In this document: one piece after another, positions 17,836 through 44,805 of the stretch
Position numbering within the stretch: position 1 is the first letter of the stretch
Layout: each line of letters starts with the position of its first letter
From: a virus
Strand: one strand, 5' to 3'
DNA: 64,000 nt
IMG/VR virus record: IMGVR_UViG_3300034072_002256
Location: 11,274 to 75,273 of that record
Notes under the pieces: generated by a model
What the model saw: the letters and a program-made list of their open reading frames with translations, nothing else
What the model was told of the DNA's origin: nothing
The model's database searches: none
Position numbers and translations under genes: made by a program

Positions 17836-17846
17836 TGTAAGGATGG

Positions 17847-23702: not shown

Positions 23703-25126
23703 GTTTCGCGCAGTGGATAAAGCTACCGGCCCTCGACCGTTGTTACCTGCTGGAAGTGTCTTATCGCCTTGCTGGCCAGTTGTATGTGCTGCGCCGTTCG
23801 ACGCATCCGTATCGGACGCACCCTGGCGATACGCCGGCACTCACGCCATACCCGGACACTATTTTGCAGTTGCCGGAATTTGAACGTGACATGACCGAAG
23901 TCTTTGCCGGCTTTAGTCGCACCGGGTTTGGTGATCTGCAGCTTTTCCTCGATGACGATATCCAGATGCTGATTGACTCCGCCAACGTGGCCGGCATGAG
24001 TGTGACGCTGCGCTGTGGTGACATGAGCTGGCCATTATCAGACTTTGGGGTGGTGCTTTCAGGTGCTCGGGTGGAACAGCTCGATGCAGTCAGTAGTGAT
24101 ACAGCGCGCCTTAGCTTCAAAGACGCGGCAGCGCTTTTCGATACGCCGGTCCCAAGGGCCACCATCAGCACCGGGCCAAATGCCGGCAAGCCAGTGCCCC
24201 TGACATACGGCCGCTGCTTTAACGTGAGTCCTGAGCTGATTAACGAAGCGACGCGCACTTACCAGGTCCATGATGGCGCGGTACAGGCCATCACTTCGGT
24301 GCGGGAAAATGGCCTCGCCATTCCTTACACCGCGAACCTCGCCGCCGGCACTTTTACTCTGACGAACAATGCCAAAGGTCGCATTACAGCAGACGTTGAT
24401 GGCGCGGTGGTGAGCAGTACCTGGTTGCAGTCAGCCAAACAAATTATTGATGCCCTGATTAGCCGGATAGGCATTGCGCCTTCAACCGGCACACTGCCGG
24501 GTTATGCACTGGGCCTTTTTATCGGCCGGGACCAAACCCTGAAATCTGCACTGGATGATTTGGTGTCATCGGTGGGCGGTTCCTGGGCATTTAACCGGGC
24601 AGGCCAACTTGTTTTAACGACTTTTAATGCCCCGTTAAACCCAACTGCGATGCTTACGGCAGACGATATCGCTGACGCAAGTCTGTTACCGCGCCGCCGC
24701 TTAGCACCTGCCAAAAGTGTGAAGCTTGGGTATCGGCGCAACTGGACACCGCAGGCTGATGGCCTTGCCGGCAGTGTGCGCGAAACGATGCCGGGACAAG
24801 CTGCGCTTTATGAGGCTCAGGAGAGCCTGGTCACTGCCATTAATCCTGATAACCCGGACTATCCGGATGCGGCGGTTATTAGTCACAGCACCCTGATTGC
24901 GAGCCAGGCGGATGCACAGACTGAAGCAAGCCGGCGGGCAGTTTTAGGTGCAGTTCCCCGGACGGTCTTTGAACTCAGTGCCTTTACCGCACCGCTTGCG
25001 ATGGAGCTTGGCCAAGTCGTGCAGGTGACATATCCGCAGTATTTCGAGGCAGGCGCGCCTGCAGTCATTACCCGCATTGTTGATGTGCTTTCTGACAATA
25101 CCTGCAAGCTGGAGATTTACCGATGA
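23699..25126 (+). CDS. Tail tip/hub-like structural protein
   Basis: Follows TMP; P..YG.CFNV.P, YQVHDG motifs; homolog at 62379-63815. Confidence 0.7.
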   Translation: MSFAQWIKLPALDRCYLLEVSYRLAGQLYVLRRSTHPYRTHPGDTPALTPYPDTILQLPEFERDMTEVFAGFSRTGFGDLQLFLDDDIQMLIDSANVAGMSVTLRCGDMSWPLSDFGVVLSGARVEQLDAVSSDTARLSFKDAAALFDTPVPRATISTGPNAGKPVPLTYGRCFNVSPELINEATRTYQVHDGAVQAITSVRENGLAIPYTANLAAGTFTLTNNAKGRITADVDGAVVSSTWLQSAKQIIDALISRIGIAPSTGTLPGYALGLFIGRDQTLKSALDDLVSSVGGSWAFNRAGQLVLTTFNAPLNPTAMLTADDIADASLLPRRRLAPAKSVKLGYRRNWTPQADGLAGSVRETMPGQAALYEAQESLVTAINPDNPDYPDAAVISHSTLIASQADAQTEASRRAVLGAVPRTVFELSAFTAPLAMELGQVVQVTYPQYFEAGAPAVITRIVDVLSDNTCKLEIYR

Positions 25127-25965
25127 ACCGCATCCGGATGCTGGTCAAAAACTTATGGGATATGGCCGCGCTGACGTTGGAGCAGGGCGGTGCTGTCGGG
25201 ACTTTACCGCTCTCGAATAGCCAGCGTTATGGCAAATCATTAACTGCAGCAATCACCCCTGTTGCCGGCAATTCAGCGGTAGTTTTCACGTTACCGGAAA
25301 TGTCTCTGGCCAGTGGCCTGGTGATTTACCGGCACTGGCTAAGTAACGCCGGCAAGTGGCGCGTGGAGCTGTTTGATGGCCCGAACGCCACTGGCACGAA
25401 GGTCTATGACTCTGCACTTTTGGACGCTGTGGCGACTAAATCACTTGGTGAGCTGGACTGGCTGGTCGACCCGCTCATAGCAAGTCCCTTTGATGCCTGG
25501 CCGTTTAAATTCAGCCAGCATTGGTTCTCACCGCAGTTTTTTCGCTCTGGGCGTCTCTCGATTTCAGATGCGGATGGCCGGGACGGGTTACATGAGTTTG
25601 ACCGGATTTACTTAGGTCAGGTGTTTGAGCCATCGGTCAATTTCAGCTGGGGTGCTGGCCATCAGTGGCAAAGCACAGAGCGTCAGTATGTGACGGCTGC
25701 CGGCAGTGTGTTTGCCAATGAGCGCATCAAAACCCGCGAAATTAAATTCACGTTGGACCATTTATCAGAGTTGGAGCGGCCGCACTTGTCGGCAGCTATT
25801 CGCACGGTGGGGATCTCAAAGGATTGGTTTATCAGCCTGTATCCGGAAGCCGCCACGGTGAAAGAAATCGAGTACGCCATGAGCTGCAAGTTCACAGCGC
25901 TACCCGGCCTTACCAACACTCACTTTAACAACTACGCCGCGCCATTCGCGGTACGGGAGGCATGA
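25123..25965 (+). CDS. Tail tip structural protein
   Basis: Coupled; beta-rich; homolog begins at 63812. Confidence 0.65.
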   Translation: MNRIRMLVKNLWDMAALTLEQGGAVGTLPLSNSQRYGKSLTAAITPVAGNSAVVFTLPEMSLASGLVIYRHWLSNAGKWRVELFDGPNATGTKVYDSALLDAVATKSLGELDWLVDPLIASPFDAWPFKFSQHWFSPQFFRSGRLSISDADGRDGLHEFDRIYLGQVFEPSVNFSWGAGHQWQSTERQYVTAAGSVFANERIKTREIKFTLDHLSELERPHLSAAIRTVGISKDWFISLYPEAATVKEIEYAMSCKFTALPGLTNTHFNNYAAPFAVREA

Positions 25966-26882
25966 TGACGGCTTTAGTAAAACCCGCCGTTGTTTTTGAA
26001 CTAACAGACCGGGGCGGAGATTACTTCGCTAAGCTCCAGGCATTAGCTACCGGTGTGGATACCGCCTTTGAAGCATACAACCAGCAGCTGGCTGCAGCAC
26101 AAACCGCTGAACAAATTAGCCAGGCGACCGCGCAACTGTATCAACAAACGTCTGATTTGGTTGAAGAGGCCCAAGGTTATGTTACTCAGGTTTACAACGC
26201 TATTGGTACTGCAGGGAATTCCGCTCAATATGCAGCTCAGCTGCTGACTGCCCGGCTTATTGCGGGGGTGCCTTTTAATGGTACGCAAAACATCGTTCTG
26301 ACAGCTGACAATGTCGGCGCAATGTCGAAAACTGCCACTGCAGTCACTGATTGGAATAACGCCCTGACAAATGGGGCCTTTTATTCTTTGAGTGGTGCTG
26401 CCAACGTGCCCAAAGCTGCGGCAGGCTGGCAAGGATTTGTTTCAGTGCTAAACGCTGAAAACGTCCGCCAAATCGTCTGGTCAGCTGATGGTCCTGCTGT
26501 TGAGATATATAGCCGCTGCGGTGACGGCACCACACTGGTTTGGGGAGCTTGGGTTTCGCTACGTCATTCTGCGGACCAACTGGATAATACTGACTACATC
26601 ACAGCCGCATCGTCAATTGCGCGAAAGGGTGTTGTAACCCGCGCAGCAATTGTTCCTGCTACTGCCTCGGTGACAATCACCATTCCTTCCGGCTACCAGA
26701 ATAAAGATCGCATCGAATTAGACGTCATGGTCCCTGCAGGCCGTCAGATAACTCTGTCGTGTGCACTCAGTATGGATGTTGCAAACGGCACCAATGGCAC
26801 CAGTCATACCCTGACGGGGCCTGTATCAGCAACTATTTCCCTCATCAATCGCAGCACATTATGGCAGCTGTTTATTGCCTGA
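25962..26882 (+). CDS. Tail fibre/receptor-binding protein
   Basis: Coiled coil, R.IAGVPFNGTQNI.LTA..VGA fibre motif, DWN.A..NG.Y....AN.P knob-like motif. Confidence 0.7.
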   Translation: MMTALVKPAVVFELTDRGGDYFAKLQALATGVDTAFEAYNQQLAAAQTAEQISQATAQLYQQTSDLVEEAQGYVTQVYNAIGTAGNSAQYAAQLLTARLIAGVPFNGTQNIVLTADNVGAMSKTATAVTDWNNALTNGAFYSLSGAANVPKAAAGWQGFVSVLNAENVRQIVWSADGPAVEIYSRCGDGTTLVWGAWVSLRHSADQLDNTDYITAASSIARKGVVTRAAIVPATASVTITIPSGYQNKDRIELDVMVPAGRQITLSCALSMDVANGTNGTSHTLTGPVSATISLINRSTLWQLFIA

Positions 26883-26899
26883 TGGCATAGGAGAACGCA

Positions 26900-27304
26900 A
26901 TGGAACTTTCAATGTTGCTGGGTGGTGGAATTAAGAGTAACCAAACAGGTTTCGTCTCAATTTCAAACCCACTATACGGCACCGTAAACGGCGAGGACGG
27001 CATCTATATCGATGTAACAATTTCTGCTGTGGATGTGACCAAATCAATCGCCAATTTTGATGGCAATGTGTTTCTGCGAACGTTAGGAACAAGTAACAGC
27101 TCCCTGGGTTTTGGAGTGGATTACATTCGTGCTCAGACAATTGACAGCAATAATGGCGTCTATCAAGCGCTGCAAAGAGTGCGTGCACGACTTATCAACT
27201 CCACCACATTGCGCCTATCAACCATCACAAATTTAGCGGCAAGCGAATATACGTTAGGCGACTGCAAATTCATTGGCCGCTGGCAAGTCGTGGAGACCAA
27301 ATAA
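26900..27304 (+). CDS. Hypothetical tail-associated protein
   Basis: AGGAG RBS; GGIKS.Q.G, VTISAVD..K, WQVVE motifs of fibre-associated proteins. Confidence 0.6.
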   Translation: MELSMLLGGGIKSNQTGFVSISNPLYGTVNGEDGIYIDVTISAVDVTKSIANFDGNVFLRTLGTSNSSLGFGVDYIRAQTIDSNNGVYQALQRVRARLINSTTLRLSTITNLAASEYTLGDCKFIGRWQVVETK

Positions 27305-27305
27305 C

Positions 27306-27821
27306 ATGTTCAGATACGCCATTTTAGACGCTAGTGGTTCGGTGATTAGTATCGCTGACTTATCAGGCCCGGTAGACCTTCCAGACTACATCATGCTGAG
27401 CGCTGATTCGGATGTGCAGACTGGGGACTACTACAACAGGGGCACGGCAGAGTTTAGCCGGCCAGTTCCAATGTTGCCGACGCCGGCACCAAAAATCAGC
27501 GAAACCAATCTTGGCCGCAAAATTACCGCTAATGCATTTCGTGCTCGGTTTGACTGGGATGAGTCTGTGGACTTTGAAAACGCTTTGGCATCAAGTGCAG
27601 AGCTTCGGGTTCTGGATAAGCGCCTGCAGGCCGTTGTTGCCACACATGTTGATTTGGACGACCCGACCTACTCAGCAGTCGCGATGCCGGCATTGGTGAC
27701 GGCGGGGATCCTAACCTCCGCCAGATCAGCAGCAATCCTTGCGGCACCCGTGCAGTGGAAAGAATTACCGCCTTCAATCCAGCAGCAGTTCATTGCTGCC
27801 GGCTATCAAATCGACGTTTAA
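27306..27821 (+). CDS. Putative tail fibre assembly/chaperone-like protein
   Basis: Likely ATG at 27306; IT..AF..RF...E, VDLDDP, GILT..R...IL motifs. Confidence 0.55.
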   Translation: MFRYAILDASGSVISIADLSGPVDLPDYIMLSADSDVQTGDYYNRGTAEFSRPVPMLPTPAPKISETNLGRKITANAFRARFDWDESVDFENALASSAELRVLDKRLQAVVATHVDLDDPTYSAVAMPALVTAGILTSARSAAILAAPVQWKELPPSIQQQFIAAGYQIDV

Positions 27822-27832
27822 ACAGGGTTTAA

Positions 27833-28294
27833 ATGATGGATGAATTACAAAAAGTACAGTTAATTTTTGCGCGGGGTCACTCTGTTGGCAGTTATGCGAT
27901 CCGCGTACGCTACCAGTCGCGCTGGTCCCACGTAGCCATCATTATTGGCGATGTGGTGCACGAGGCCATCTATCCGGATGGCGTGGTGAAAACACCGCTG
28001 CAGGAATTTAAAGACCGTTATGGTGCTGGCAACTGGGAGATTGCAACCGCATACGCCGCGCCTGGCTGGCAAACTCGGGCCAATAGCTTGCTTGGCCTTG
28101 AGTACGATTTCTGGGGCGCCGTTGGCATTGGGTTTGGCACTCGCAAACTGGATAACCCGTTTGCGCTTTGGTGTAGCCACCATACGGCCATCATCCTTGG
28201 CACTTTACGCCAGGAACGTCTGAACCGTCTGGCGCCGGAGCATTTGTGGATTGTTACACAGCCGGCAAATGATGCCGCAGGAGTTGCAGCATGA
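27833..28294 (+). CDS. Permuted NlpC/P60 (papain-like) amidase-family protein
   Basis: WSHVAI...EA..P.GV, G..YDF, WCS: His before Cys (permuted order). Confidence 0.75.
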   Translation: MMDELQKVQLIFARGHSVGSYAIRVRYQSRWSHVAIIIGDVVHEAIYPDGVVKTPLQEFKDRYGAGNWEIATAYAAPGWQTRANSLLGLEYDFWGAVGIGFGTRKLDNPFALWCSHHTAIILGTLRQERLNRLAPEHLWIVTQPANDAAGVAA

Positions 28295-28980
28295 GCTTAC
28301 ATTCAGTATTGGAGGCCATGCGTGGCCAGCCATATCCAGTGATCCTCGAAACGTTACGCCAGCAATCAGCACCTGCCATTGGCAAAATCCAAGGCAGCCA
28401 GCTGAAACTCCTGCAGTCGTTTATCGGTGCCACCGGGTTACGTAATCGGTTGGCGAATGCGACTCCGGAACAAGCAGCCGCTGCGGCATCAGTCACAGAA
28501 GCCATTCAACCAGCTTATCTGGCGCGGGAAGACTCATACAGCATCAATCTGGCCGACCCACAGGTTGCGCAGCTACTGATCGATGCCGTAAGTGCTGGCG
28601 TTTTGACTGCAGACGAAAAAGCTTACCTGATCCAACTAGCGACCTATTCAAAGCCACTCTGGCCAAACGTGACACTGCGTGACGTTGTGGCTTATTTCGA
28701 ACCGAGCCTGGTTGATGTGGGGGATTGGGTCGAAGTGGAACCGGGCGAGTCTCAGCGGTTACGTTTGAAGTTGGCCGCAGTCACGCCAGAATCCACATAT
28801 ATAGTGGTGCAGATGCAGGAAAACGACGGCGAGTGGTCGGAATGGTTCCATGCGACAGCACACCATGGCATCCAGCAGCTGCGCTCATACACCTTTGCGG
28901 TGCCTCATAACGGTTTACCGCGCCGGATGCGCTGGCGTGGTGGCGAATACCGCATTGACGGCACTGTGACGGCGGTCTGA
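28291..28980 (+). CDS. Hypothetical protein
   Basis: 229-aa ORF coupled to neighbours, GGAG RBS. Confidence 0.7.
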   Translation: MSLHSVLEAMRGQPYPVILETLRQQSAPAIGKIQGSQLKLLQSFIGATGLRNRLANATPEQAAAAASVTEAIQPAYLAREDSYSINLADPQVAQLLIDAVSAGVLTADEKAYLIQLATYSKPLWPNVTLRDVVAYFEPSLVDVGDWVEVEPGESQRLRLKLAAVTPESTYIVVQMQENDGEWSEWFHATAHHGIQQLRSYTFAVPHNGLPRRMRWRGGEYRIDGTVTAV

Positions 28981-28981
28981 T

Positions 28982-30256
28982 ATGCCTAATGCAGTAACTA
29001 CTCAAGGCCAAGGCGCAGATGCTTTTATTTCAATGCCCAGCTGCACAATCAATGCCGGCACAAACACTGGCATCAGCGGTATTGAGATTGATGTAAAACC
29101 TTTAACAGGCAGCGCTGCAGGATTCATCAACCTGTTTGGCGTTTCGTCTACCAATGTGACAGCGTTGCGGATAAATACTGCGACACAAACCCTTCAATGG
29201 CGATACAGCAGTACGGTTTATCTTGAGTCTGCTGCGGGTACAGCTCCACTTAATGAGCGTCACAAGTATGGTGCTGAGTGGGAAGAGTCTACTTTATCGC
29301 TGTATTTAACTAAAAATGGTGTCCGAATTGCTGGGCCATACGTTGCCCCATCTGCAGGCTCTTTGATTACCAATGTTCCGTGGAATCAAATTGGTAAGGT
29401 TGGCTCGACTGCACCTGGTGGTGCGATGGCATTCGAGCTTTATGGCGTTCGGACCTACGGCAATAACTGCAGCTATCAATCGCAATGGGATGAAACTGGC
29501 GCGAGTGGTGCCGGTACTGCTTGGGCAAATGACTCAGTTGACAGAAATCTAAACCTAACAAGTTTTGCTGGCACATCCAACAGTTGGTGGGTGTTTTACA
29601 GCAACCTCTATATCGGTGAAGGCACTTTCAACGCTATCGCAACAGCGAGCGTTGCACTGACAGGTTCTAAAATTGGCAATGGAAGCATCCCGGCAGTAGT
29701 TGCCGCAGCTGTTGCAGGCAACGGCTGCAAAATTGGTACCGCGCAGCTCAGCACGCCAATTGCTGCCGGCATTGAAATGTCCGCGGTAAAAGTTGGCGTG
29801 GCTGAAATGCCAATCGAGGCAAATGCTGAGGTCGATCTTTACTCCGGCAATCTGTACATCGGAACGGGCACTTTTTCCGTGTCCGCTGACGCGAACGTGA
29901 CTCTGGTGGGTTCAAAAGTCGGCTGCAGTGCGGTTGAGTTTGTTGCCGTGGCCACTAGCTATCTGAATGCGACCAAGACAGCAAATAGTATCGCGCCAGT
30001 TCCAGCGACATCTGCATTGGCGTTTGATGGCTATAAGATTGGATATGCACCAGCTGTTGTACATGCATCTGTCGCCATGACGTTATCAGGTGGTCGCGTA
30101 ACAAATGAATCCGCGCCTGTAACTGTCGTATTCATTCGAACATCCAGCAAGTTGTCATACAACGTCAAAACATCAAGTCGCACCATCCACAGCGTCAAAA
30201 CGACCAGCCGTTACCAATATCACTTGAAGACTTTTAGCGGAGGCGACCATGCCTGA
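28982..30256 (+). CDS. Putative accessory virion protein (beta-sandwich/LamG-like N-terminus, repetitive C-terminus)
   Basis: Beta-rich N-half; C-half has periodic K(I/V)G repeats and two LYIG.GTF motifs. Confidence 0.6.
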   Translation: MPNAVTTQGQGADAFISMPSCTINAGTNTGISGIEIDVKPLTGSAAGFINLFGVSSTNVTALRINTATQTLQWRYSSTVYLESAAGTAPLNERHKYGAEWEESTLSLYLTKNGVRIAGPYVAPSAGSLITNVPWNQIGKVGSTAPGGAMAFELYGVRTYGNNCSYQSQWDETGASGAGTAWANDSVDRNLNLTSFAGTSNSWWVFYSNLYIGEGTFNAIATASVALTGSKIGNGSIPAVVAAAVAGNGCKIGTAQLSTPIAAGIEMSAVKVGVAEMPIEANAEVDLYSGNLYIGTGTFSVSADANVTLVGSKVGCSAVEFVAVATSYLNATKTANSIAPVPATSALAFDGYKIGYAPAVVHASVAMTLSGGRVTNESAPVTVVFIRTSSKLSYNVKTSSRTIHSVKTTSRYQYHLKTFSGGDHA

Positions 30257-30578
30257 TCCATTAGTGCAGCTCAGACAGGGTACTGGCGGTGTCATTAACA
30301 TTGAACACGATATCGATGGCCAACCAATTGACGGTATAACAGCCGCTAAATATGAGCTTAGAGACCGAGGCGGCAACGTCTTGCTGACCTTAACAGAAGG
30401 TGCAGGCATCACCTGGAAAGATGGGTATATCGTCATTTCTATCACAAAAGACCAGTGCAAAACGCTTGCTGGCAATTACGAACATGAATGCGCTGCAGTT
30501 GACTTGGCTGGGCGCGATTTAACGGTCCTTGAAGGCCCCATTAACTTTAAACCACGTAAGACTTGGAGCGAATTATGA
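30249..30578 (+). CDS. Small beta-rich virion protein (BppU-N-like)
   Basis: L.QG..., I.I.IT..Q...L.G.Y.HE, TVL.G pattern. Confidence 0.55.
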   Translation: MPDPLVQLRQGTGGVINIEHDIDGQPIDGITAAKYELRDRGGNVLLTLTEGAGITWKDGYIVISITKDQCKTLAGNYEHECAAVDLAGRDLTVLEGPINFKPRKTWSEL

Positions 30579-30928
30579 GCATGTCTGATAAAGCAAAAAA
30601 CAGGGCGGCGAACGCGATCATTGCAGTACAGGCGTCATTGCATAGCGGTGACCCAGGCGCTGATGGCGCAGCCAATGAGCTACCGACAGCAGGTGGCATC
30701 TATTCCCGCAAGCCAACTAACTACGGAGCTGCGGTGGCGGGGAAGCGCAGCCTGCCTGCTGATATTCTTTTTGACACACCACCGGGTTCATCGGTGTCAC
30801 ACTATGTGATTTGGGATGAAGACGGTGACGTAGTTAAAATTGGGCAGTTCGCTAAGACAGAAACTTACTCTGGCCAAGGCCAGCACAAGATAAAGGCTAT
30901 TGGAAGTGAGCTGACTGTCAACGGTTAA
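30575..30928 (+). CDS. Tail-fibre-associated small protein
   Basis: SLH..DPG..G.ANE...Y.R motif, VSH..IWD. Confidence 0.6.
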   Translation: MSMSDKAKNRAANAIIAVQASLHSGDPGADGAANELPTAGGIYSRKPTNYGAAVAGKRSLPADILFDTPPGSSVSHYVIWDEDGDVVKIGQFAKTETYSGQGQHKIKAIGSELTVNG

Positions 30929-30959
30929 GCCAAACAGTCATACCTGTTTCAGATGAATG

Positions 30960-30982
30960 AAAGCCCCGTTTAAGGGGCTTTT
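30960..30982 (+). terminator. Rho-independent terminator ending the P1 late operon
   Basis: AAAGCCCC-GTTTAA-GGGGCTTTT. Confidence 0.85.
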
Positions 30983-31014
30983 AACTATCTCAAAATAAAT
31001 AAACCGATTCGTTT

Positions 31015-31096
31015 GGTTTGATAAATTTGTATCGTTGAGTTTGATAATTTATCAAACCGTGCGGCGCAAATTTATCAAACCGTGCGGCGCGCTACA
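31015..31096. repeat. P1 right end with transposase-binding sites
   Basis: AATTTATCAAACCGTGCGGCGC at 31046-31067 and 31069-31090; inverted GGTTTGATAAATTT at 31015-31028; terminal TACA. Confidence 0.88.
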
Positions 31097-31101
31097 GGAT
31101 G
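31097..31101. other. 5-bp inter-prophage spacer GGATG (probable shared target-site duplication)
   Basis: Exactly 5 bp between terminal CA and TG; Mu makes 5-bp duplications. Confidence 0.75.
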
Positions 31102-31127
31102 TGTAACCCGTCATAGAGTTTGAAAAA
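31102..31127. repeat. P2 left end (L1-type site)
   Basis: TGTAACCCGTCATAGAGTTTGAAAAA aligns with the right-end reverse complement TGTAGCGCGCCGCACGGTTTGATAAA (TGTA and GTTTGA in register). Confidence 0.82.
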
Positions 31128-31230
31128 GGATAAGGGAAAAGTGGGATTTGCCGGGAATAGCCGAAAACACGTGGGAGCCTTGGAAAATAAGGCTTTGCGG
31201 GTTTTGAAGAAAACTTTTCAGGAATGATGA

Positions 31231-31440
31231 GATCGGACGTAAAAAGCGTTAAAGATGAAAAATACTTTCGGACGCTAGAGAATAACCCACATAGTATGAA
31301 AAAACGTCCGATTTAAGAAATCGATGCCTAGCGCGGCTTACAGAACAATACTTATCAAATTATCATAATAAAGTGGTGATCGGACACCAGGATAGATCGG
31401 ACGTGGGATAACGGAAGGATCGGACCTGGTATGTCCGATC
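31231..31440. repeat. Cluster of 7 (GA)TCGGAC motifs
   Basis: GATCGGAC at 31231, 31378, 31395, 31418; TTCGGAC at 31267; inverted copies at about 31304-31312 and 31433-31440. Confidence 0.8.
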
Positions 31441-31453
31441 CTCAGCTTAAAAA

Positions 31454-32284
31454 CTACTCTTTTGACTTATTTCTGGATCTTGCAGATGACAATGAACGGT
31501 AGACTTTATCTAATGATTCATCAGTAAGTTCAGTCAAGCTCTGCACACCAAATTCACTTAGTTTCGAAACTAGCCAACGCTTCCCGAACTCTGAGTTCGT
31601 ATTCACTTTGATGTATGCATACTTTCGATTTCGCCAAGAAGAATTGTCCGATTTTTCAGCTGCTGTGGTTGAATTCAATCGGCCAATCCACTTCAAGAGA
31701 TAAGTTTCAGCAGTGGAAAACTTTTCAAGGGGCAGCAATCGATAAGATGCAACCTTGCAATGAGAATTGAGCGAAGACCAAATAGACCGATATCCCTTCG
31801 GCGCTTTCTTCGTGATCTCTTCTAAACGAACGACTTCAGCGACTAATTCAGTCAATCTGGAGGCTTGAGATTCGCTAATGTGCTCAATCCCTGGTGAAGT
31901 TTTCGCGATTGTGACTTTTTTTAGATTGTTTGTGACGATGTTATTCACAGTTGATCCGGCTTCTGCCTTCATCAGCAAATTCCCAGAATTCTGTTTTACC
32001 ACTAATTTAGATTCATTCACCCTGGGGGGGACTGCAGGCGCATTTGCATCTTCAGCGTCCTGCAGATTAGCGGATTTTATTCCCGTCAGTACGTATTGAA
32101 CGTCAATTCCATATCCAGCTGATTTAGCTAGGAGTTCGGCGTCTAAACGACTTTGCCCGATTTCATATCGGCGCAAAGTTTCCGCACTAATTCCAAGTTT
32201 GTCAGCAAAATCGCGTTGTGAATATCCTATCCGGCTCCGTTCTTCAACGAGACGAAGCGCAATATCAGCTCTGTCAAAACTCAT
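31454..32284 (-). CDS. Prophage repressor (XRE HTH) with C-terminal ORF6C-like region
   Basis: RL.EER.R.GYSQ.DFA..LGIS..T..RYE.G; divergent from ner at the left end; likely ATG at 32284. Confidence 0.85.
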   Translation of the reverse strand: MSFDRADIALRLVEERSRIGYSQRDFADKLGISAETLRRYEIGQSRLDAELLAKSAGYGIDVQYVLTGIKSANLQDAEDANAPAVPPRVNESKLVVKQNSGNLLMKAEAGSTVNNIVTNNLKKVTIAKTSPGIEHISESQASRLTELVAEVVRLEEITKKAPKGYRSIWSSLNSHCKVASYRLLPLEKFSTAETYLLKWIGRLNSTTAAEKSDNSSWRNRKYAYIKVNTNSEFGKRWLVSKLSEFGVQSLTELTDESLDKVYRSLSSARSRNKSKE

Positions 32285-32294
32285 AAAAATCCGT

Positions 32295-32323
32295 TTGACT
32301 ACCACAATATTGTGGTATATCTT
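32295..32323 (+). promoter_or_regulatory. Early promoter with perfect 18-bp palindromic operator
   Basis: TTGACT-17-TATCTT; TACCACAATATTGTGGTA at 32300-32317 fills the spacer. Confidence 0.8.
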
Positions 32324-32389
32324 TTAATTGAAATCGAAACAAACCTTCATTGCAATTGCAGTGCAATGACATCAAAACGGGTAATTATC

Positions 32390-32662
32390 ATGGACAAAGA
32401 CGCTATTAAGCAAGCGCTTCATGCCAAAGGGTTTTCCTTCACCATGATCGCTGAAGCTTTAGGAGTTGGACCGAACGCGGTGTCTGCTATCGCCTCACGA
32501 AGAGGCCAATCTAAACGAGTTGCTGATGCTATAGCAAAGGCGCTCGAAATGCCGGTTGAGGAAATATTCCCAGATATCGAAAGTTACAAACGTGACAGGC
32601 TGCCATGTGGCAAAGAAAAGGATGCCAAGCGAGCTGAACTAGCCAAGTTATTGGCGAGCTGA
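32390..32662 (+). CDS. ner: Ner-like HTH regulator
   Basis: IK.AL..KG.S...IA, IA.AL......IFP motifs; between repressor and transposase. Confidence 0.8.
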   Translation: MDKDAIKQALHAKGFSFTMIAEALGVGPNAVSAIASRRGQSKRVADAIAKALEMPVEEIFPDIESYKRDRLPCGKEKDAKRAELAKLLAS

Positions 32663-32669
32663 GGTCTAT

Positions 32670-34931
32670 ATGCAGGAATGGTTTGTTGCAAACGAAATTG
32701 CAGGTCTGCCTGGGTTACCAACTACAGAGCGGCGTACCCGTGATTCACTCGAAAAGCTTGTTGAAGGCAAGCCTGGGCTAAAGCGAAATCGTGAAGGTAC
32801 TCGTGGTTTTGAGTACCACTACACCTGTCTTTCAGTCGAAGCTCAATCCGTATTGCTTGAACGCTCTTTACTGGCAGGCAATTCAGAGAAAACAGTAATT
32901 GAAGAAAAATCAGTAACACGCAAGGAGTGCTCTGATTCAAGGACGCGTGCTGAAGACAAAATTAGCAAGGGTTTGGCCGCTCTTGGTCAGATCGTTGCGC
33001 TTGAACCTAAAAAACGAGAGTTAGTTGAAGCAAAAATTGCTCTTGTTCGTGCTTATGACGACTACCTTGAACAATTTGAAGTCACCCGCAGCAAATGCGC
33101 GGGAGAGCGTGCATTCATAGAAAACTATGATTTGCTAGTTCCAGACTGGATTCGTAAATCAATTCCTAGCGTCAGCATTAGTACTATTAAACGAGCAAAA
33201 AAGGGTATTGAAAGCCACAAAATTGCAGAGCTGGCCGGAAACTACAAATCTGACAAGAAGTCAGTTTTCGATCTCAATACAGAAATGGCGAATTTTGTTC
33301 TGGCTTTGATTACAGCCAAACCGCATTTCATCAGCAAGCCGAAAACTGTTAAAAACGCGATACAAGTCAAGATTAATGAAGGCTACAACTGGCCAAACGT
33401 CTCTAATAGTTCGGTTAGCAGGCATCTTTCAAAATTAACGAAAACTTTGTCGGCAGAGCTTGCATATGCAACTAACCCTAAGGAGTACAACAACAGCCAT
33501 CGCCCAATTTTTGCTGAGATGTATAGCTGGATCACTGGACCAAACCAAGTTTGGGAACTTGATTCCACGCCAACAGATGTTCAGCTCAACGTCGCCGGAA
33601 AAGCTCGTAGATATAGTGTCATTGGCGCAATTGACGTTTTTACGCGGCGAATGAAAGTAGTTTTAATGCCGTCAAGTTCCAGTGAGGGCATTTGTCTGTT
33701 ACTTCGAAAATGCTTGCTGGAATGGGGTATCCCCCAGGAAGGCGCTGTAATAAGGACAGACAACGGATCGGACTATGTAAGCAAAACAACTACCGGGCTT
33801 TTCAGCATGCTGGGCCTCTCTCAAAGCAGAGCCAAGGCATTCAGCGGTTGGGAAAAACCATTTATTGAGCGTGCATTCAAAACTATGTCGCACTCATTAA
33901 TGGAGAAATTACCAGCATATGTGGGGCACGATGTTGCCGACAAAAAGCGACTGCAAGAAATGCTCAGCTTCGCAGAAAGTATCGGCGCAAAACGCAAAGA
34001 GCGAGATCGCCAACTTCTTGAAATCAGTCTAACGCCTGAAAGGCTTCAGGCAGCACTCGATGATTGGTTGGAATTTGATTACCACCACCAACCGCACGAA
34101 GGCCTTAACAAAAGAACTCCGTTTGAGGTTTATTCGGAGAGCGGCTATCGACCGCAGTTGCCAGAAAATTCTCATAGTTTGGACATCCTTTTAAATTATG
34201 TCGGGACTGCCACAGTGGTTCGCGGCGGCGTGTCCGCCATGAACGTCAAATTTACATCACCGGAGCTGATGGAACCGATTTGGGACCGAAGAAAAGTACG
34301 TGTTTTTCTTGATCCATCAGATGTTGGTCGAGCAACTTTGTACCCACTTGATAGTTGGGATATGCACGTCGAGGCCGTGAATATCGACCTTATTGGGCGC
34401 GACATAGATCCCGCAATGTTCAGGGAAAGTCGCCGAGAAGCAGCTAAAACTTTGCGCAAGTTCAAACAATCAGCAGCTGCGCTTCAAAAGGATTTTGGTA
34501 TTGATGATCTTGCAGCATTAGAGCTGGCACAAAAGAAATTGGCCAATAGCAGTCTAGTTGCATTTAACAAAACTGAAGTGGACATAAACAATCCAGCCAT
34601 TTCTGCATTGAGCAAAACGGCGACCGTTTTGATGGATGGTAAGAAAGAACGTACATGGTCTGAAGCAGAGCTAAAAGCCATTGAAGCTAGGAGGCAATCA
34701 TTAGAGCAACAGAGAGCGGCGCAGGCCCGCAGGGAAGAAAACCTTTCTGAGCAATCACGTGTAGTACTTCGCACTGAACACGAACAAGCAGAGTGGCTTA
34801 CCCGCGAAAGCTTGGTTCGGGATCTTAGCGAGGTCGAAAAAACTTGGCTAATTAAATTCCGCAATACACACGTGATGACGAGAAAACGGCTGGACAGAAT
34901 TCTAGAAGAAAGCAAGCGCGGAGTCGGTTAG
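32670..34931 (+). CDS. Mu-type DDE transposase (A protein)
   Basis: N-terminal Mu HTH (EIAGLPGLP..., EYH); WELDSTPTD / RTDNGSDY / KPFIERAF catalytic triad. Confidence 0.95.
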   Translation: MQEWFVANEIAGLPGLPTTERRTRDSLEKLVEGKPGLKRNREGTRGFEYHYTCLSVEAQSVLLERSLLAGNSEKTVIEEKSVTRKECSDSRTRAEDKISKGLAALGQIVALEPKKRELVEAKIALVRAYDDYLEQFEVTRSKCAGERAFIENYDLLVPDWIRKSIPSVSISTIKRAKKGIESHKIAELAGNYKSDKKSVFDLNTEMANFVLALITAKPHFISKPKTVKNAIQVKINEGYNWPNVSNSSVSRHLSKLTKTLSAELAYATNPKEYNNSHRPIFAEMYSWITGPNQVWELDSTPTDVQLNVAGKARRYSVIGAIDVFTRRMKVVLMPSSSSEGICLLLRKCLLEWGIPQEGAVIRTDNGSDYVSKTTTGLFSMLGLSQSRAKAFSGWEKPFIERAFKTMSHSLMEKLPAYVGHDVADKKRLQEMLSFAESIGAKRKERDRQLLEISLTPERLQAALDDWLEFDYHHQPHEGLNKRTPFEVYSESGYRPQLPENSHSLDILLNYVGTATVVRGGVSAMNVKFTSPELMEPIWDRRKVRVFLDPSDVGRATLYPLDSWDMHVEAVNIDLIGRDIDPAMFRESRREAAKTLRKFKQSAAALQKDFGIDDLAALELAQKKLANSSLVAFNKTEVDINNPAISALSKTATVLMDGKKERTWSEAELKAIEARRQSLEQQRAAQARREENLSEQSRVVLRTEHEQAEWLTRESLVRDLSEVEKTWLIKFRNTHVMTRKRLDRILEESKRGVG

Positions 34932-34999
34932 CGGCCACACCCGCGCTTGCCAAGCAAACCTGTGGTGGTCCCACAGAATTTACATAACGGAGTATATCG

Positions 35000-35725
35000 A
35001 TGAAAAACAAAACAGTCGAAGTCAAAAATGTGACCCGGACGCAGGAAATGTTCGAGAACCTGAGTTCGCGCAGCATGATCACACCAGGCATAGGTCTTAT
35101 TCATGGCCCGAGCGGCTTTGGAAAAACAACCACAGTCACATATATGTTCAACGAGCTGACGGTGTCGGGCCAGCAACCTTTATATGTGCGCTGTTATGCG
35201 ACAGATACACCCAGTTCATTTTTAGCAAGGGTTATGGGGGAACTTGGTGCACAACCAATGTTTCCGCTTCGCAAGATGGTTGATTACGTGGTGCAGGCCA
35301 TGAACGAACGCAGCCTGGCGCTATTTGTTGACGAAGCTGATCACATCGTCAGCCAGGCAAAGACGATGGAAACCATCCGCGATTTATACGACAGCACCGA
35401 GCAGCCTGTGGTTCTGATTGGCATGGAAGAAATTGCCCGCCGCATCTCACACCGTAAGCAGCTGTTTAACCGGATCTCTGAATGGGTCGAATTTGCGCCG
35501 GCAGACATTGAGGACGTGCATTTGTTTGCTACTGATTTGATGGATGACCGGGTTCAGGTCGGTGAAGATCTGCTCGACTTTATCCGGCAAAAGTCAGGCG
35601 GTGAGGTACGCCGGATTTTGATCGCATTAGAAAAAATCGAACGTGCGGCCCTTGCCAGCGGTGAAACCTTTGTCGATTTGCACAGCTGGGGCAACCGCCC
35701 ACTGTTCCTGAACCATCGTCGTTAA
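35000..35725 (+). CDS. Transposition AAA+ ATPase (B protein), lacking N-terminal HTH
   Basis: Walker A GPSGFGKT, Walker B LFVDEAD, IRDLYD, VVLIGM; 241 aa. Confidence 0.92.
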   Translation: MKNKTVEVKNVTRTQEMFENLSSRSMITPGIGLIHGPSGFGKTTTVTYMFNELTVSGQQPLYVRCYATDTPSSFLARVMGELGAQPMFPLRKMVDYVVQAMNERSLALFVDEADHIVSQAKTMETIRDLYDSTEQPVVLIGMEEIARRISHRKQLFNRISEWVEFAPADIEDVHLFATDLMDDRVQVGEDLLDFIRQKSGGEVRRILIALEKIERAALASGETFVDLHSWGNRPLFLNHRR

Positions 35726-35740
35726 TTGCGGAGCTGGTCA

Positions 35741-36337
35741 ATGACTAAACACGAATTAGCTTGGGACAAGATGAAGCAAATGGATCGCTTCACTGTTACC
35801 GACGTGGCTAATGCGGTTGAGATGGACCTCGAAGAATGTCGCAAATCAATAAAACGCCTTGAAAAATCAGGCTATCTGGAAATCGTTTCGGGAATTGGTG
35901 TGGCTGGAAGGCCGTATTTTTATCGGGTGAAACCTGAGGTTACCACCACACCACAGTTTGGCCGTGGCGGCACAAGTGGACTGAAAAAAGTCCGCTCAGG
36001 CATGAATGGACAGCAGCTGATTTGGAACGCATTGCGGATAAACAGAAAGTTGACTGTTGGGACTGCAGAGGCAGTTACAAAACTAAATTCAAGAACGATT
36101 TATCGCTACCTGAATGACCTCGAAAAAGCTGGTTATGTGAAGTGTCAGCGGCATGACAGGGTTGGTTCGAACTTCGACCGGACTGGTGTGCAGAACATTT
36201 GGAAACTGATCCGTGAGACAGGTCCCAAAGCGCCAATTTTGCGCAGAGGCAAAGGGTTTTGGGACCAGAACGAAGATAAGTTTTATTCCTTAGATGGTGG
36301 AAAAACTGTTGGAGGCCGCACGGATGAAGTGGCTTGA
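35741..36337 (+). CDS. Tandem winged-helix DNA-binding protein
   Basis: Two W..M/L...FT...A.....Y/I..LEK.GY repeats; ETGPKAP motif. Confidence 0.75.
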   Translation: MTKHELAWDKMKQMDRFTVTDVANAVEMDLEECRKSIKRLEKSGYLEIVSGIGVAGRPYFYRVKPEVTTTPQFGRGGTSGLKKVRSGMNGQQLIWNALRINRKLTVGTAEAVTKLNSRTIYRYLNDLEKAGYVKCQRHDRVGSNFDRTGVQNIWKLIRETGPKAPILRRGKGFWDQNEDKFYSLDGGKTVGGRTDEVA

Positions 36338-36821
36338 AGTATTGAGGGACCAGGTCGGATTGAACGGTCAACGGCCTGTCGCTGAAAAGCTGGGTGTCAG
36401 TAACACAGTGATCAGCCAGGTCGTCAATGAAAAATACCCTGGCGATATGGGCCGAATTCAGGCTCTGGTGGAAAGCGTGTACATGAGCAAATCAGTGTTG
36501 TGTCCGGTGCTTGGTGAAATCGCCTGGCATACCTGCCAGATGCACCAGAAAAACACTCACACCGGCAATCCGACCAAGCTGCGCTTGTATCGGGCCTGCC
36601 GCAGTGGCTGTGAAAACTCGGATTTGCCAGTGACGCAAAACATCCAGTTAAACCCGAGCGCAACGCTTAATCGCAGCCTGAAGGTTTACGACGCAGATGC
36701 AGTGATCGCCCGGTTAAAGCGCCAGGTGGAATCCGATGGCGGCGGGCCGGCTCAATTAGCTGAGTTGCTGCAATCAGAACTGAAGAATCTGGCGACCAAA
36801 CTGAACAGAACGGACAAATGA
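36324..36821 (+). CDS. HTH plus Cys-rich (Zn-binding?) protein resembling the MuB N-terminal domain
   Basis: QRPVAEKLGVS..VISQV...KYPGD; CPVLG....C...C..GC; GGAGG RBS before ATG 36324. Confidence 0.7.
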   Translation: MKWLEVLRDQVGLNGQRPVAEKLGVSNTVISQVVNEKYPGDMGRIQALVESVYMSKSVLCPVLGEIAWHTCQMHQKNTHTGNPTKLRLYRACRSGCENSDLPVTQNIQLNPSATLNRSLKVYDADAVIARLKRQVESDGGGPAQLAELLQSELKNLATKLNRTDK

Positions 36822-37093
36822 CCATGAAAAATACTAACGCTATCAAGCTGGCGCTCCGCGACGCCACCAACGCCGTGAACCTGTTGGATAAACGCGGCTA
36901 CAAAGTGATTGGGCTGAGCATGAATCAAGCGCAACCAATCATCACCATCAGCACTCCACCGGCCAGCAAAACGCCAAAGGGTACAGAGATCCGCTGTATC
37001 CGTGAGCGTGGCGCTGCGCCAGAAAGAATTATGGCCGCGCCGTTTAACGGGTGTTTAGTCACCTGGAATGCCGACGATTCGGCCATGCAGTAA
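36818..37093 (+). CDS. Hypothetical early protein
   Basis: Coupled; ends A...GC.V.W as in many Mu-like early genes. Confidence 0.7.
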   Translation: MTMKNTNAIKLALRDATNAVNLLDKRGYKVIGLSMNQAQPIITISTPPASKTPKGTEIRCIRERGAAPERIMAAPFNGCLVTWNADDSAMQ

Positions 37094-37124
37094 CCCGCCA
37101 ACAACCATCGCTATTGGAGACCCC

Positions 37125-37754
37125 ATGGATACTTCTACACATGCAATTCCTGCCGGCTACTGGCAGAACGCTCAGGGTGCGTTAATCCCTGTGGAAATGG
37201 TGAAGCCGATTGACCGGGCACGGAATGATTTAGTGCATGAACTGGTGCAAAAGGCCAATGAATTGAGCCAGTTAATGGCCAAGTTTAAGACTTCAGCTTT
37301 TGCCGATATCGCTGCTTTTGTTGACCTGTCGCTGGAGCAGTACGACACCAACGTTGGCGGTAAAAAGGGCAACCTGACGCTGTACAGCTTTGATGGCCGC
37401 TACAAAGTGCAGCGCGCTATTCAGGAACACCTGCAATTTGATGAACGGCTGCAGGCGGCGCGGGCACTGATTGACGAATGCCTGGCTGACTGGACGGCCG
37501 GCGCTGCACCGGAATTAAAAGCCATCGTGGCCAACGCCTTTAACACTGACAAGGCCGGCAACATCAGCACCAGCCGCGTGTTAGGCCTGCGTCGCCTCGA
37601 TATCAAAGACGAGCGCTGGCTTAAAGCTATGACCGCCATTGGTGAAGCGGTGCAGGTTGTCGGCAGTAAGGCTTATATCCGGGTGTATGAACGCATCGGC
37701 GATTCAGAAATGTACCGGCCTATTCCTCTGGATATCGCGGCGGTGCAGTTATGA
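37125..37754 (+). CDS. DUF3164-family Mu-like early protein
   Basis: IPAGYW.NA.G.L.P, GGKKGN.TL.SFDG, FDERLQAA..LIDEC, SK.Y.R.YER. Confidence 0.85.
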   Translation: MDTSTHAIPAGYWQNAQGALIPVEMVKPIDRARNDLVHELVQKANELSQLMAKFKTSAFADIAAFVDLSLEQYDTNVGGKKGNLTLYSFDGRYKVQRAIQEHLQFDERLQAARALIDECLADWTAGAAPELKAIVANAFNTDKAGNISTSRVLGLRRLDIKDERWLKAMTAIGEAVQVVGSKAYIRVYERIGDSEMYRPIPLDIAAVQL

Positions 37755-37954
37755 CAGCACCAGCACGTAAGCCAGCCCCACGGCCTGACGATGAAGCCAT
37801 CCAGCGTGAAATTGCGGTGTCATTGGCCATCAGGGAACAGTACGTCACTAATCATCCAGGTGACACTTTTGAGCAAGGTGTTGCAGCCGCATTGCTCTGG
37901 GTACTCGGCAATGGCGAACTGCCAAACGGGGAGGCCAAGGGATGGATGAACTGA
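37751..37954 (+). CDS. Small hypothetical early protein
   Basis: Coupled; T(F/Y)EQGV.AAL.WVLG motif. Confidence 0.65.
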   Translation: MTAPARKPAPRPDDEAIQREIAVSLAIREQYVTNHPGDTFEQGVAAALLWVLGNGELPNGEAKGWMN

Positions 37955-38169
37955 CCAAAGCCTTATGGGAAATGCGCCAGCACATGATTTCACTCTGTGT
38001 GCTTTACAAGCTGGACGTATGGCCGCAAGTGCCCGGCTATGAATGCCTGATGAAAGGCATCGCCAGTACAGCCGGTATCGACGAAGACACACTCTGGAAC
38101 TGGTTCGAAAACACTTGCGAGAGCGTTGAACAGCTGCAGGAGTTTGTCGAATTTCATAAAGCAGCATGA
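37942..38169 (+). CDS. Small hypothetical early protein
   Basis: GGAGG RBS; stop immediately before hammerhead 1. Confidence 0.6.
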   Translation: MDELTKALWEMRQHMISLCVLYKLDVWPQVPGYECLMKGIASTAGIDEDTLWNWFENTCESVEQLQEFVEFHKAA

Positions 38170-38170
38170 A

Positions 38171-38239
38171 GCGAAACAGTCCGGTATTGATGACCGGGCT
38201 GTCTATCCAGCGTCGTGGCTGGGTACTGATGAGCAGCGG
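38171..38239 (+). ncRNA. Type II hammerhead ribozyme 1
   Basis: GC-GAAAC-stemIII(AGTCCGGT/ACCGGGCT)-GTC^-stemI(TATCCAGC/GCTGGGTA)-CTGATGA-GC; predicted cleavage after 38203. Confidence 0.9.
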
Positions 38240-38248
38240 GAGCATTCA

Positions 38249-38668
38249 ATGATTAGCAAAGAGCAGTGGGCGACAATCGAAAAACATTTCAGTGAGCGAG
38301 TGTTTCACACTGAAAAATTCCAGTTGGGCGAAACTTTATTATCCGTCAGCAAGACATTTGTCGAAAAAAACAAACTCGGCTTAGTGGTTTACATAGACGG
38401 GGTTATTCAACCGTCCCAAGGAATTCAATCCAGCAGTTTATTTAACCCGCTCACAAGTCAGGTGTGGTGCAAACGCACAAAGCATCTTTACTCACCGGCA
38501 AAGAAACAGAAGCTCATCAACGAGTATGGCAAGCGTCGGATCAAACAGTATTTTCCGGATTTGGATAAAACCTATTCATATTTCTCTCCACTGTTTACCA
38601 GTGAAAAAACGCTCATTCGGCAGTTTAAAAAATTGGATGGGTTAAGTGTTGTCGCCGAGAGCGAATAA
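38249..38668 (+). CDS. Hypothetical 139-aa basic protein flanked by hammerheads
   Basis: GGGAG RBS, ATG at 38249 (MISKEQW...). Confidence 0.75.
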   Translation: MISKEQWATIEKHFSERVFHTEKFQLGETLLSVSKTFVEKNKLGLVVYIDGVIQPSQGIQSSSLFNPLTSQVWCKRTKHLYSPAKKQKLINEYGKRRIKQYFPDLDKTYSYFSPLFTSEKTLIRQFKKLDGLSVVAESE

Positions 38669-38724
38669 GCGAAACGCCAATTGGCGTCTATCCAGCGTCG
38701 TGGCTGGGTACTGATGAGCAGCGA
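38669..38724 (+). ncRNA. Type II hammerhead ribozyme 2
   Basis: GC-GAAAC-GCC AATT GGC-GTC^-TATCCAGC GTCGTG GCTGGGTA-CTGATGA-GC; predicted cleavage after 38688. Confidence 0.9.
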
Positions 38725-38738
38725 AGAGGTAAGCAGTT

Positions 38739-39305
38739 TTGCAGACGAAAACATCAAAGCAGCATTTGATAAAGATGCTCCACATTGGCAAAAGCCAACT
38801 GCACATGGCCGACGAAAGCTATCGGGCGCTATTGGCCCACCACGGTAAAGGCAAAACAAGTAGCACTCAGCTGACCATTGCAGAACTGCAGGCTGTGCTG
38901 GATGCCATGGTTAATTTGGGTTTTAAGGTCGTTAAAAAGCCGGTTAAACCGGGGCAAAAACGCTTAAGCCCAACCAGTAGCGATGGCCCGCAAGATATCC
39001 GCGCAGTGATCCGCGCTGTTTGGGTGTTTATGGCTAAGGCCAAATTTCTGAACGACGGCAGTGAAACCGCTTTGAATAGCTGGGTGCAACGCATGACCTC
39101 TGAAATGAATGGCGGCATGGGTGTGGCTGAAGTTCAGTGGCTCCATGATGGCATGGCTGTGAAGGTGCTGGAGTCCTTAAAGCGCTGGTGTCGGCGTGAG
39201 ATGTTCGACGCTTTGCGTTCTGACGGTCATGAAATCCACCCGCAAGCCAGTTACAGCCAGGTGCTGTCGAAATGGCAACGAATTTATGAAGGGCAGAGTG
39301 CATGA
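38739..39305 (+). CDS. gemA: GemA (Mu gp16/DUF1018-like)
   Basis: LI..LHI.K.QL.M.DE.YR.LL....GK.S...L...EL..V...M...GF; IRA.W; E.LK.W..R. Confidence 0.88.
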   Translation: MQTKTSKQHLIKMLHIGKSQLHMADESYRALLAHHGKGKTSSTQLTIAELQAVLDAMVNLGFKVVKKPVKPGQKRLSPTSSDGPQDIRAVIRAVWVFMAKAKFLNDGSETALNSWVQRMTSEMNGGMGVAEVQWLHDGMAVKVLESLKRWCRREMFDALRSDGHEIHPQASYSQVLSKWQRIYEGQSA

Positions 39306-39784
39306 AGTTAGGCCGCTGTCCCGTTTGTCACAGTCACATTCAGCTGGATGCATTGATCCAGGATGAAGCCGGCCGGCAGTTGCTTGGCCTGATGTCAAAG
39401 CTGGGTTATCAGCTGGCGCCAGCCCTTGTGAGTTATCTGGGCCTGTTCAGGCCAACGAAGCAAGACTTATCCAATGGCCGTGCCTTAAATCTGGCGCAGG
39501 AAACACTGGCCCTGACATCTAACCAGCCGTTACTGGCCGAAGCACTGCGCGAAACCGTGCAAAGCATTCACAACAAACGGCACCAGGGCGAAAACAAGCC
39601 GCTGGCCAATCACAACTATTTAAAGCGGGTGATGGAAGCCAAAGCGCAAGTGCCGGTAGCCAACCGTTCGCCCAGTATCGAACTGAAACAACAGCACCAG
39701 CTGTCACCGGCGGAAGACCGCAGATTATATGAAGAGCGCATGCTGCAGTTAGGCGGCCGTATATTTACCAAGGTGGAACCATGA
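39302..39784 (+). CDS. Hypothetical protein with N-terminal CPVC
   Basis: Between gemA and mor; Y..LFRP.K..L, PL.NHNYL motifs. Confidence 0.8.
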   Translation: MKLGRCPVCHSHIQLDALIQDEAGRQLLGLMSKLGYQLAPALVSYLGLFRPTKQDLSNGRALNLAQETLALTSNQPLLAEALRETVQSIHNKRHQGENKPLANHNYLKRVMEAKAQVPVANRSPSIELKQQHQLSPAEDRRLYEERMLQLGGRIFTKVEP

Positions 39785-40203: not shown

Positions 40204-40275
40204 AGACGCGATGTGGTTGAGTCTTTTAAATGTTTTCCGTTATAGTCACAAAATTGACCATGCAAAGGAAAGCTA

Positions 40276-41724: not shown

Positions 41725-41739
41725 CAAGGTCAATTTAAA

Positions 41740-42594: not shown

Positions 42595-42666
42595 TTAAGT
42601 AGTTTAATATCAACAGTTTATCTAGAAAAACTAATCTGCGGTCACCAATGACCAACCGCAGATTAG
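42594..42666 (+). promoter_or_regulatory. Late promoter plus RBS hairpin (P2 lysis operon)
   Basis: TTTAAT(42603)-N23-TAATCT(42632); same 12-bp stem as in P1. Confidence 0.65.
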
Positions 42667-42670
42667 GCAG

Positions 42671-43362: not shown

Positions 43363-43364
43363 TT

Positions 43365-44794: not shown

Positions 44795-44805
44795 AAGGTG
44801 CCCCG

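Follow-up and report, generated by a model that had tools for sequence, protein, structure and literature searches.

Gene content of two abutting Mu-like prophages

The window (the whole 64,000-nt stretch of DNA that was analysed) corresponded to bases 11274 to 75273 of a single 75,273-bp metagenome-derived virus record (contig L001), and it contained two Mu-like prophages, phage 1 and phage 2, lying head-to-tail (Table 1). Phage 1 was colinear with phage 2, and its repressor, Ner, MuA, and MuB were encoded upstream of the window. Both phages displayed the gene order of a leftward repressor, a Ner-like gene, MuA, and a 241-aa MuB, followed by DUF3164, GemA, Mor, and the virion genes. Features by which Mu-like phages are recognized were present: (i) MuA plus MuB, identified by Pfam in both phages and by PHROG as transposase and DNA transposition protein; (ii) TG...CA ends, imperfectly inverted and with repeated sub-terminal sites; and (iii) the Mu-type early/middle gene set of a divergent repressor/Ner pair, GemA, and Mor. 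A search of the phage collection returned no match.

Table 1. Features of the two prophages and their junction, in window positions
Feature	Position	Strand	Remarks
Mu-like prophage 1	1..31096	+	right 31.1 kb in window; 38,577 bp overall; starts 7,480 bases before window
Right end of phage 1	31009..31096	+	ends ...GCGCGCTACA; four GTTTGATAA core copies; repeat families D1, D2, D4, I1-I6
22-nt direct repeats, exact	31046..31067 and 31069..31090	+	family D2; 100% identical; spacing 23
GGATG spacer	31097..31101	.	middle one of three target-duplication copies
Mu-like prophage 2	31102..64000	+	cut by contig end; about 6 kb missing if colinear with phage 1
Left end of phage 2	31102..31450	+	TGTAACCCGTC...; sub-terminal repeats
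Repressor, phage 2	31454..32305	-	HTH_3 domain; no S24 peptidase domain
Ner-like regulator, phage 2	32312..32662	+	Pfam HTH_35
MuA-type DDE transposase, phage 2	32670..34931	+	HTH_Tnp_Mu_1, rve, Mu-transpos_C
MuB-type AAA+ ATPase, phage 2	35000..35725	+	241 aa; AAA_22, TniB; phrog_296
Tandem winged-helix (wHTH) protein, phage 2	35726..36337	+	directly after MuB

The two phages were related in a markedly uneven way along their lengths. Their first 2.3 kb, comprising the repressor, Ner, and the start of the transposase gene, shared no DNA similarity; the repressor of phage 1 was S24-type and unrelated to that of phage 2, and the latter had a single relative in IMG/VR. The MuA proteins were 33% identical over the first 200 aa and 78% in the core. 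Only 2 of 241 residues differed in MuB and 1 of 203 in the wHTH protein (window 34999-36337 compared with L001 7656-8993). Identity was 83-93% in the early region and 64-77% in the virion genes. A sharp mosaic boundary was located inside the transposase gene near window position 33456. The near-identical MuB and wHTH proteins, combined with unrelated repressor regions, fit a pair of phages that choose the same target and can coexist as a double lysogen.

The 241-aa ATPase matched only positions 295-522 of phrog_296, and a 175-aa protein encoded after the wHTH gene at window 36294-36821 gave a weak PHROG match to the MuB-type N-terminal part (phrog_296 positions 232-282). On these profile matches, B may be split into two genes in these phages.

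The junction, the outer flanks, and the empty site

The two phages abutted across exactly 5 bp, as the sequence-only reading had held: the junction read ...GCGCGCTACA GGATG TGTAACCCG..., with the last base of phage 1 at 31096 and the first base of phage 2 at 31102. The imperfect inverted termini that had also been proposed were borne out, since the reverse complement of the phage 1 right end and the phage 2 left end matched at 18 of 28 ungapped positions (binomial p ~1e-5), including TGTA at 1-4 and GTTTGA at 17-22. The right end further carried two inverted copies of the GTTTGATAA core besides the 22-nt direct repeats. These repeats had been called tandem transposase-binding sites: the repeats themselves were exact, while binding is inferred only, and they are presumed to be terminal transposase-binding sites like R1 and R2 of Mu.

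Both termini were independently confirmed in other DNA. The right terminus was that at which IMG/VR contig L002 (IMGVR_UViG_3300034682_000235) stopped exactly (...CTACA), and a phage 1-type right end recurred beside other DNA in metagenome contig L010. The phage 2 left end, TGTAACCC..., had the same first base but different flanks in L003 (IMGVR_UViG_3300035670_009754) and in isolate run X5. L002 thus broke off at the right end itself, and L003 began 125 nt before the left end; such breaks are expected where flanks are heterogeneous, whether from many-site transposition or from virion DNA, and they hint that lytic replication is not limited to a single address.

The GGATG pentamer recurred in the outer flanks, to the left of phage 1 and, in a read-derived contig, beyond a right-type end, where its absence would have counted against repeated use of one target. 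The left end of phage 1, TGTAACCCACC..., lay at L001 3793 (window position -7480), and GGATG occupied L001 3788-3792 directly before it, 7.5 kb ahead of the window, the left junction reading ...TTTTTTCA GGATG TGTAACCCACC.... L001 2545-3793 was 80% identical to Rheinheimera genome G028, up to exactly GGATG. A left end of phage 1 at L001 ~3929 (flank TCGAA or ATGCG) was considered and rejected, this being an inner binding site according to the colinearity with G028. On the right, one Logan contig of run X1 was composed of a right-type end, GGATG, and host DNA TCGCGGCTGG...; the right end of phage 2 was not on L001, and the X1 contig could come from cells with phage 1 only. The uninterrupted locus of G028, ...TTTTTTGA GGATG TCGCGGCTGA..., held a single GGATG, and the L001 left flank joined to the X1 flank aligned base for base with seven uninterrupted Rheinheimera genomes. 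A search of IMG/VR gave no match for the host flank or for a generic pattern of right end, 5 bp, and left end.

The outer copies and the empty site thus supported the claim that two different phages had used the very same 5-bp target in the same orientation, two separate transpositions into one pentamer being the most economical history. The TG...CA ends and the 5-bp duplication identified the integration as ordinary Mu-type transposition. Movement of the whole composite as one unit would require that an unrelated inner pentamer match the outer pair by coincidence (1 in 1024).

An artefactual or non-transpositional origin, either a chimeric assembly or a tandem prophage duplication across 5-bp repeats followed by module exchange, had to be weighed, given that the record is a single metagenome-derived contig, that stretches of 83-93% identity could mislead an assembler, and that related variants co-occurred in run X1. 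A genuine junction needs reads spanning right end, GGATG, and left end, and read-derived Logan contigs from two samples carried precisely this join (X3 covering window 31067-32000 and X1 covering 31073-32000), which met the demand for read support; a k=31 graph cannot produce the join from a shared 6-mer. Only assembled contigs of one study were compared with the window, without raw reads, and both junction samples belonged to that study. Two insertions would be expected to leave three GGATG copies and flanks exactly colinear with the empty site, as was seen. A recent duplication is excluded by the lack of relatedness between the repressor regions and by virion genes only 64-77% identical. An origin of this kind is accordingly regarded as scarcely credible.

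Measured from the 3' end of ssrA, the tmRNA gene, the target was 199 nt downstream; it fell near codons 11-12 of a P2 GPA-like replication gene. This gene belongs to an island of ~6-8 kb, integrated at the ssrA 3' end, that contained an integrase, small ORFs, and the P2 GPA-like nicking/replication gene, that had a 26-nt repeat of the 3' end of ssrA at its boundaries, and that was present in ~9 of 43 Rheinheimera genomes; it was located at L001 1-3792 (upstream of the window), at L114 2655-8583, and in L123. Upstream of the island replication gene there were conserved direct repeats with the core GACAAAAGTTGGC in 2-3 copies, and a palindrome CCAGACGTGTCTGG. The phages showed no enrichment of the iteron-like motif found in the target region, and the P2 GPA-like relatives in IMG/VR were too distant (38%) to locate the break in the interrupted gene. 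The island may be a phage satellite. Its replication gene was cut by both window phages and was separated from ssrA by the phage of Rheinheimera sp. 4Y26 (see below), and cutting it may be relevant to conflict between phage and island.

Insertion sites of related prophages

A transposase profile built from both phages, run against 401 family genomes, hit 13 of them once each; four of these hits (G105, G131, G138, and G415) were cut by contig ends and remained unresolved, and G026 was added from a genus-level search. The only close relative in species-representative genomes was a 36,994-bp prophage of Rheinheimera sp. 4Y26 (MuA 58% and MuB 85% identical). tRNA and tmRNA genes were called by ARAGORN, and distances were taken from the phage right end to the gene 3' end (Table 2).

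Table 2. Insertion sites of relatives of the window phages
Genome or contig	5-bp duplication	Neighbouring RNA gene	Distance (nt)	Remarks
Rheinheimera sp. 4Y26	ATTGG	ssrA	80	window locus, 124 bp nearer ssrA, same orientation
G242	ATGAA	tRNA-Ser(GGA)	43	
G279	GCATT	tRNA-Ser(GGA)	51	
G172	AATGT	tRNA-Ser(GGA)	51	
G399	TCAGT	tRNA-Ser(GGA)	63	
G381	CGAAT	tRNA-Ser(GGA)	71	
G261	CCAAA	28-nt partial copy of tRNA-Ser(GGA)	72	
G171	GTTCC	tRNA-Ser(GGA)	115	
G026 (Rheinheimera)	CGAAC	tRNA-Ser(GGA)	248	
G155	TTAAA	tRNA-Leu(GAG)	54	
Metagenome contig L019		tRNA-Pro(GGG)	129	
Metagenome contig L010		tRNA-Gly(CCC)	122	insertion upstream of gene; right end faces gene 5' end

The prophages of 4Y26 and of nine family genomes each had a matched pair of 5-bp duplications (10 pairs), with the right end facing the gene 3' end; in the nine, the gene was on the opposite strand. 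The duplications and positions differed, so these insertions were independent. One orientation relative to the RNA gene was shared by 12 of 13 insertions, L010 being the exception. Scattered, unrelated loci would have refuted a preferred address; instead, every resolvable homologous prophage adjoined a tRNA or tmRNA gene, all but one on its 3' side. The close relatives used different RNA genes (ssrA, tRNA-Pro, and tRNA-Gly). Under the assumption of ~80 tRNA/tmRNA genes per 4-Mb genome, the stretches within 250 nt of their 3' ends make up ~0.5% of a genome, and a dozen independent insertions falling there rule out chance.

The metagenomes were scanned by pattern, which gave 29 hits that were mostly chance; three (L009, L010, and L019) were taken as real ends. 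Three close-relative insertions (L003, X5, and X10) could not be placed, their flanks being only 26-146 nt long and matching none of the sequences compared. A family-wide scan for the right-end motif recovered the known ends, one solitary end in G219, and five chance-like hits, and as an internal control none of these five had a tRNA within 1.5 kb. The solitary right-type end (G219:C11:111026-111049; L157) lay 200 nt from tRNA-Ser(GGA), in a genome without a transposase hit at E<=1e-30, and it is probably the remnant of an earlier visit to the tRNA-Ser(GGA) address.

No DNA rule common to the sites emerged: a shared palindrome or a fixed distance was looked for across them, and neither was found. 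The pentamers, counting duplications and single flanks alike, had A or T as the middle base in 18 of 19 cases, the exception being ATGAA of G242, whereas the target consensus of Mu, CYSRG, has G or C at the centre.

Several family genomes contained a conserved unit of ~100 nt downstream of tRNA-Ser(GGA), which started like the tRNA 3' part (GAGAGGGATT), formed three hairpins, ended in a T-arm-like sequence (GGTTCGAACC), and had its own terminator copy; it was tandem in G026 and G279. Copies were positioned at L118 1531-1660, at L126 6030-6130, in L125 (reverse strand), and in the flanks of G171, G242, and G261. ARAGORN made no call on this unit; a decayed att remnant and an unknown small RNA are both possible identities.

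The association with RNA genes might in principle reflect a structural hot spot with no dedicated selector, insertions being drawn by terminator or REP-type hairpins or by the heavy transcription of stable RNA genes. There is a precedent in the D3112-group phages Ab30/2P1 of Pseudomonas aeruginosa, which have leaky self-immunity and a few base-precise insertion sites by palindromic (BIME-linked) repeats, 55-61 bp beside a palindromic motif and in 300- to 3000-fold excess (PMC5977238). Terminator hairpins or palindromes likewise lay between insertion point and gene at most sites of the present lineage, and the targets in G026 and G279 were within repeated hairpin-bearing units. The Ab30 sites, however, show no orientation bias (PMC5977238), whereas 12 of 13 insertions here had one orientation. 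Moreover, a genome has hundreds of terminators, yet nine events (eight prophages plus the G219 end) were at tRNA-Ser(GGA). A mere structural hot spot is therefore considered quite unlikely.

Remnants of other phage ends accompanied three of the intact prophages: (i) a 1.4-kb remnant with a right-type end, 130 nt to the left of the prophage, in G026; (ii) a right-end copy, 180 nt to the left, in G279; and (iii) in G399, a 0.94-kb remnant that lay 144 nt to the left and matched the right end of that prophage at 98% identity. All three were on the side away from the tRNA gene and were taken as traces of older phages. In isolate run X10, a prophage combined a left end of the phage 2 type with a right end of the phage 1 type and had the duplication CGTAG; its flank (~30 nt visible) had a Mu-type binding motif, GGGTTTGATAAAAAC, and this prophage may have inserted into the terminal region of another Mu-like element.

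Stacking of this sort raised the possibility that the right tip of a resident Mu-like element attracts incoming phages, the opposite of target immunity, with the tRNA association being secondary. The zero spacing in the window array, the right-end remnants 130-240 nt to the left of the prophages in G026, G279, and G399, and the binding motif in the X10 flank would all agree with such attraction. It does not account for at least seven prophages that lay beside an RNA gene without a resident end in the examined flank (4Y26, G242, G172, G381, G155, G261, and G171), and within the window array itself one of the two phages must have come first, to an empty site. The spacing between stacked elements also varied, which is better matched by repeated use of one locus. 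Attraction by resident ends is on balance judged unlikely.

Proposed homing and its possible basis

The reading that we favour, with a probability of roughly 0.75, is that a lineage of Mu-like phages homes to the stretch just downstream of tRNA/tmRNA genes, with the right end towards the gene, and that the window array arose from two insertions there. Under this proposal, a lineage of Rheinheimera and same-family hosts would target the stretch just 3' of a tRNA or tmRNA gene, and in the window host the preferred pentamer would be GGATG, ~200 nt past the 3' end of ssrA. A first phage would insert at GGATG and duplicate it; a second phage, with another repressor, would enter either of these, and three copies and a head-to-tail array would result. 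The GGATG copy that was still next to the directing feature would stay a target. The positions of the remnants suggest that this feature is on the RNA-gene side, in which case the gene-side copy would remain the target, newcomers would land nearest the gene, and older phages would be pushed outwards and decay. If newcomers do land on the gene side, phage 2 is the later arrival; this order, like the side of the directing feature and the identity of what reads it, is inferred. A resident end 0 bp from the target was no bar to the second insertion. Part of the pattern could also stem from selection for harmless sites.

The sequence-only reading had gone further and suggested a Tn7-like dedicated attachment site at which prophages accumulate as an array. 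Homing, orientation, and array formation stood. A single att sequence did not, given distances of 43-248 nt and different RNA genes, and no TniQ/TnsD-like selector was identified, no Pfam family of that kind, nor of TnsE or Cas, being found in the genes after MuB. TnsA gave no Pfam match among the genes scanned, which did not include every ORF.

The wHTH protein was kept directly after MuB in all relatives checked, with 26-31% identity to distant members, and its structural model (pLDDT 73.5) had two wHTH domains and only generic matches to tandem winged-helix folds. A likeness to TFIIIC tauB was the top fold match, but with a TM score of 0.28 it was not accepted as evidence. As a hypothesis only, and with no data on binding between MuB and the wHTH protein, the latter is a candidate target selector. 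One could imagine that a phage protein, for which the wHTH protein is the best candidate, reads the DNA of the tRNA/tmRNA 3' end and places MuB there with an oriented docking like that of TnsD, lytic replication still using many sites; this remains speculative and is more likely wrong than right. If it were true, these phages would link Mu naturally to homing of the Tn7 type, and they would lack target immunity towards their relatives.

Relation to known systems and significance

Mu inserts nearly at random and shows target immunity near its own ends, an immunity that is slightly leaky (PMC5977238). The window lineage shares with Mu, D3112, and B3 a MuA-type transposase, a MuB-type ATPase, the repressor/Ner pair, GemA, Mor, TG...CA ends, a 5-bp duplication, and a size of ~36-40 kb. 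It differs from Mu in being confined to tRNA/tmRNA flanks, in being oriented, and in tolerating a resident end 0-240 nt away; near-random targeting and flank immunity, which are properties of Mu rather than a criterion for the group, were therefore not observed.

In Tn7, the right end is the one nearest the target gene. Tn7-like elements and the window phages have in common a 5-bp duplication, oriented homing downstream of a conserved gene, and arrays of different elements, the last being represented here by the three GGATG copies and by the remnants beside intact phages in G026, G279, and G399. The window phages differ in having no TnsA or TniQ/TnsD detected among the genes scanned, in their variable distance, and in being complete phages; measured against the fixed distance of Tn7-like homing, their orientation was consistent (12 of 13) and the class of gene constant, but the distance and the particular RNA gene varied. 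MuA and MuB are homologous to the transposase and ATPase of Tn7-like elements, and some CASTs home ~30 nt downstream of a tRNA gene (PMC10293859).

Ab30/2P1 resemble the window lineage in being Mu-like phages whose insertions coincide to the base. They differ in that the insertions recorded are replicative events of lytic growth without orientation bias, and in that their hot spots take up ~5% of events and have no link to tRNA genes (PMC5977238). Palindromes were near most sites of the window lineage, but its orientation was biased and there was no common motif or distance.

Prophages and islands with tyrosine integrases use the same class of chromosomal address, and the window target itself was inside such an ssrA island. 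Recombination of these elements takes place at a fixed core within the gene 3' end and leaves no 5-bp duplication, whereas the window lineage had transposon ends and insertion points outside the gene. In the full-text literature, the coverage of which was incomplete, no description was found of tRNA/tmRNA-directed Mu-like phages or of arrays sharing one duplication.

Homing by a Mu-like lineage would account for the pile-up of such prophages at loci usually credited to integrases, and it is a warning for tools that set prophage boundaries, as a tRNA-adjacent prophage need not use an integrase. The phage and its culturable aquatic host would make a tractable system for studying what guides a target-capture protein of the AAA+ class. 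Mu is the standard example of near-random insertion with target immunity, and a homing lineage would show that MuA/MuB can be aimed, like their Tn7 relatives.
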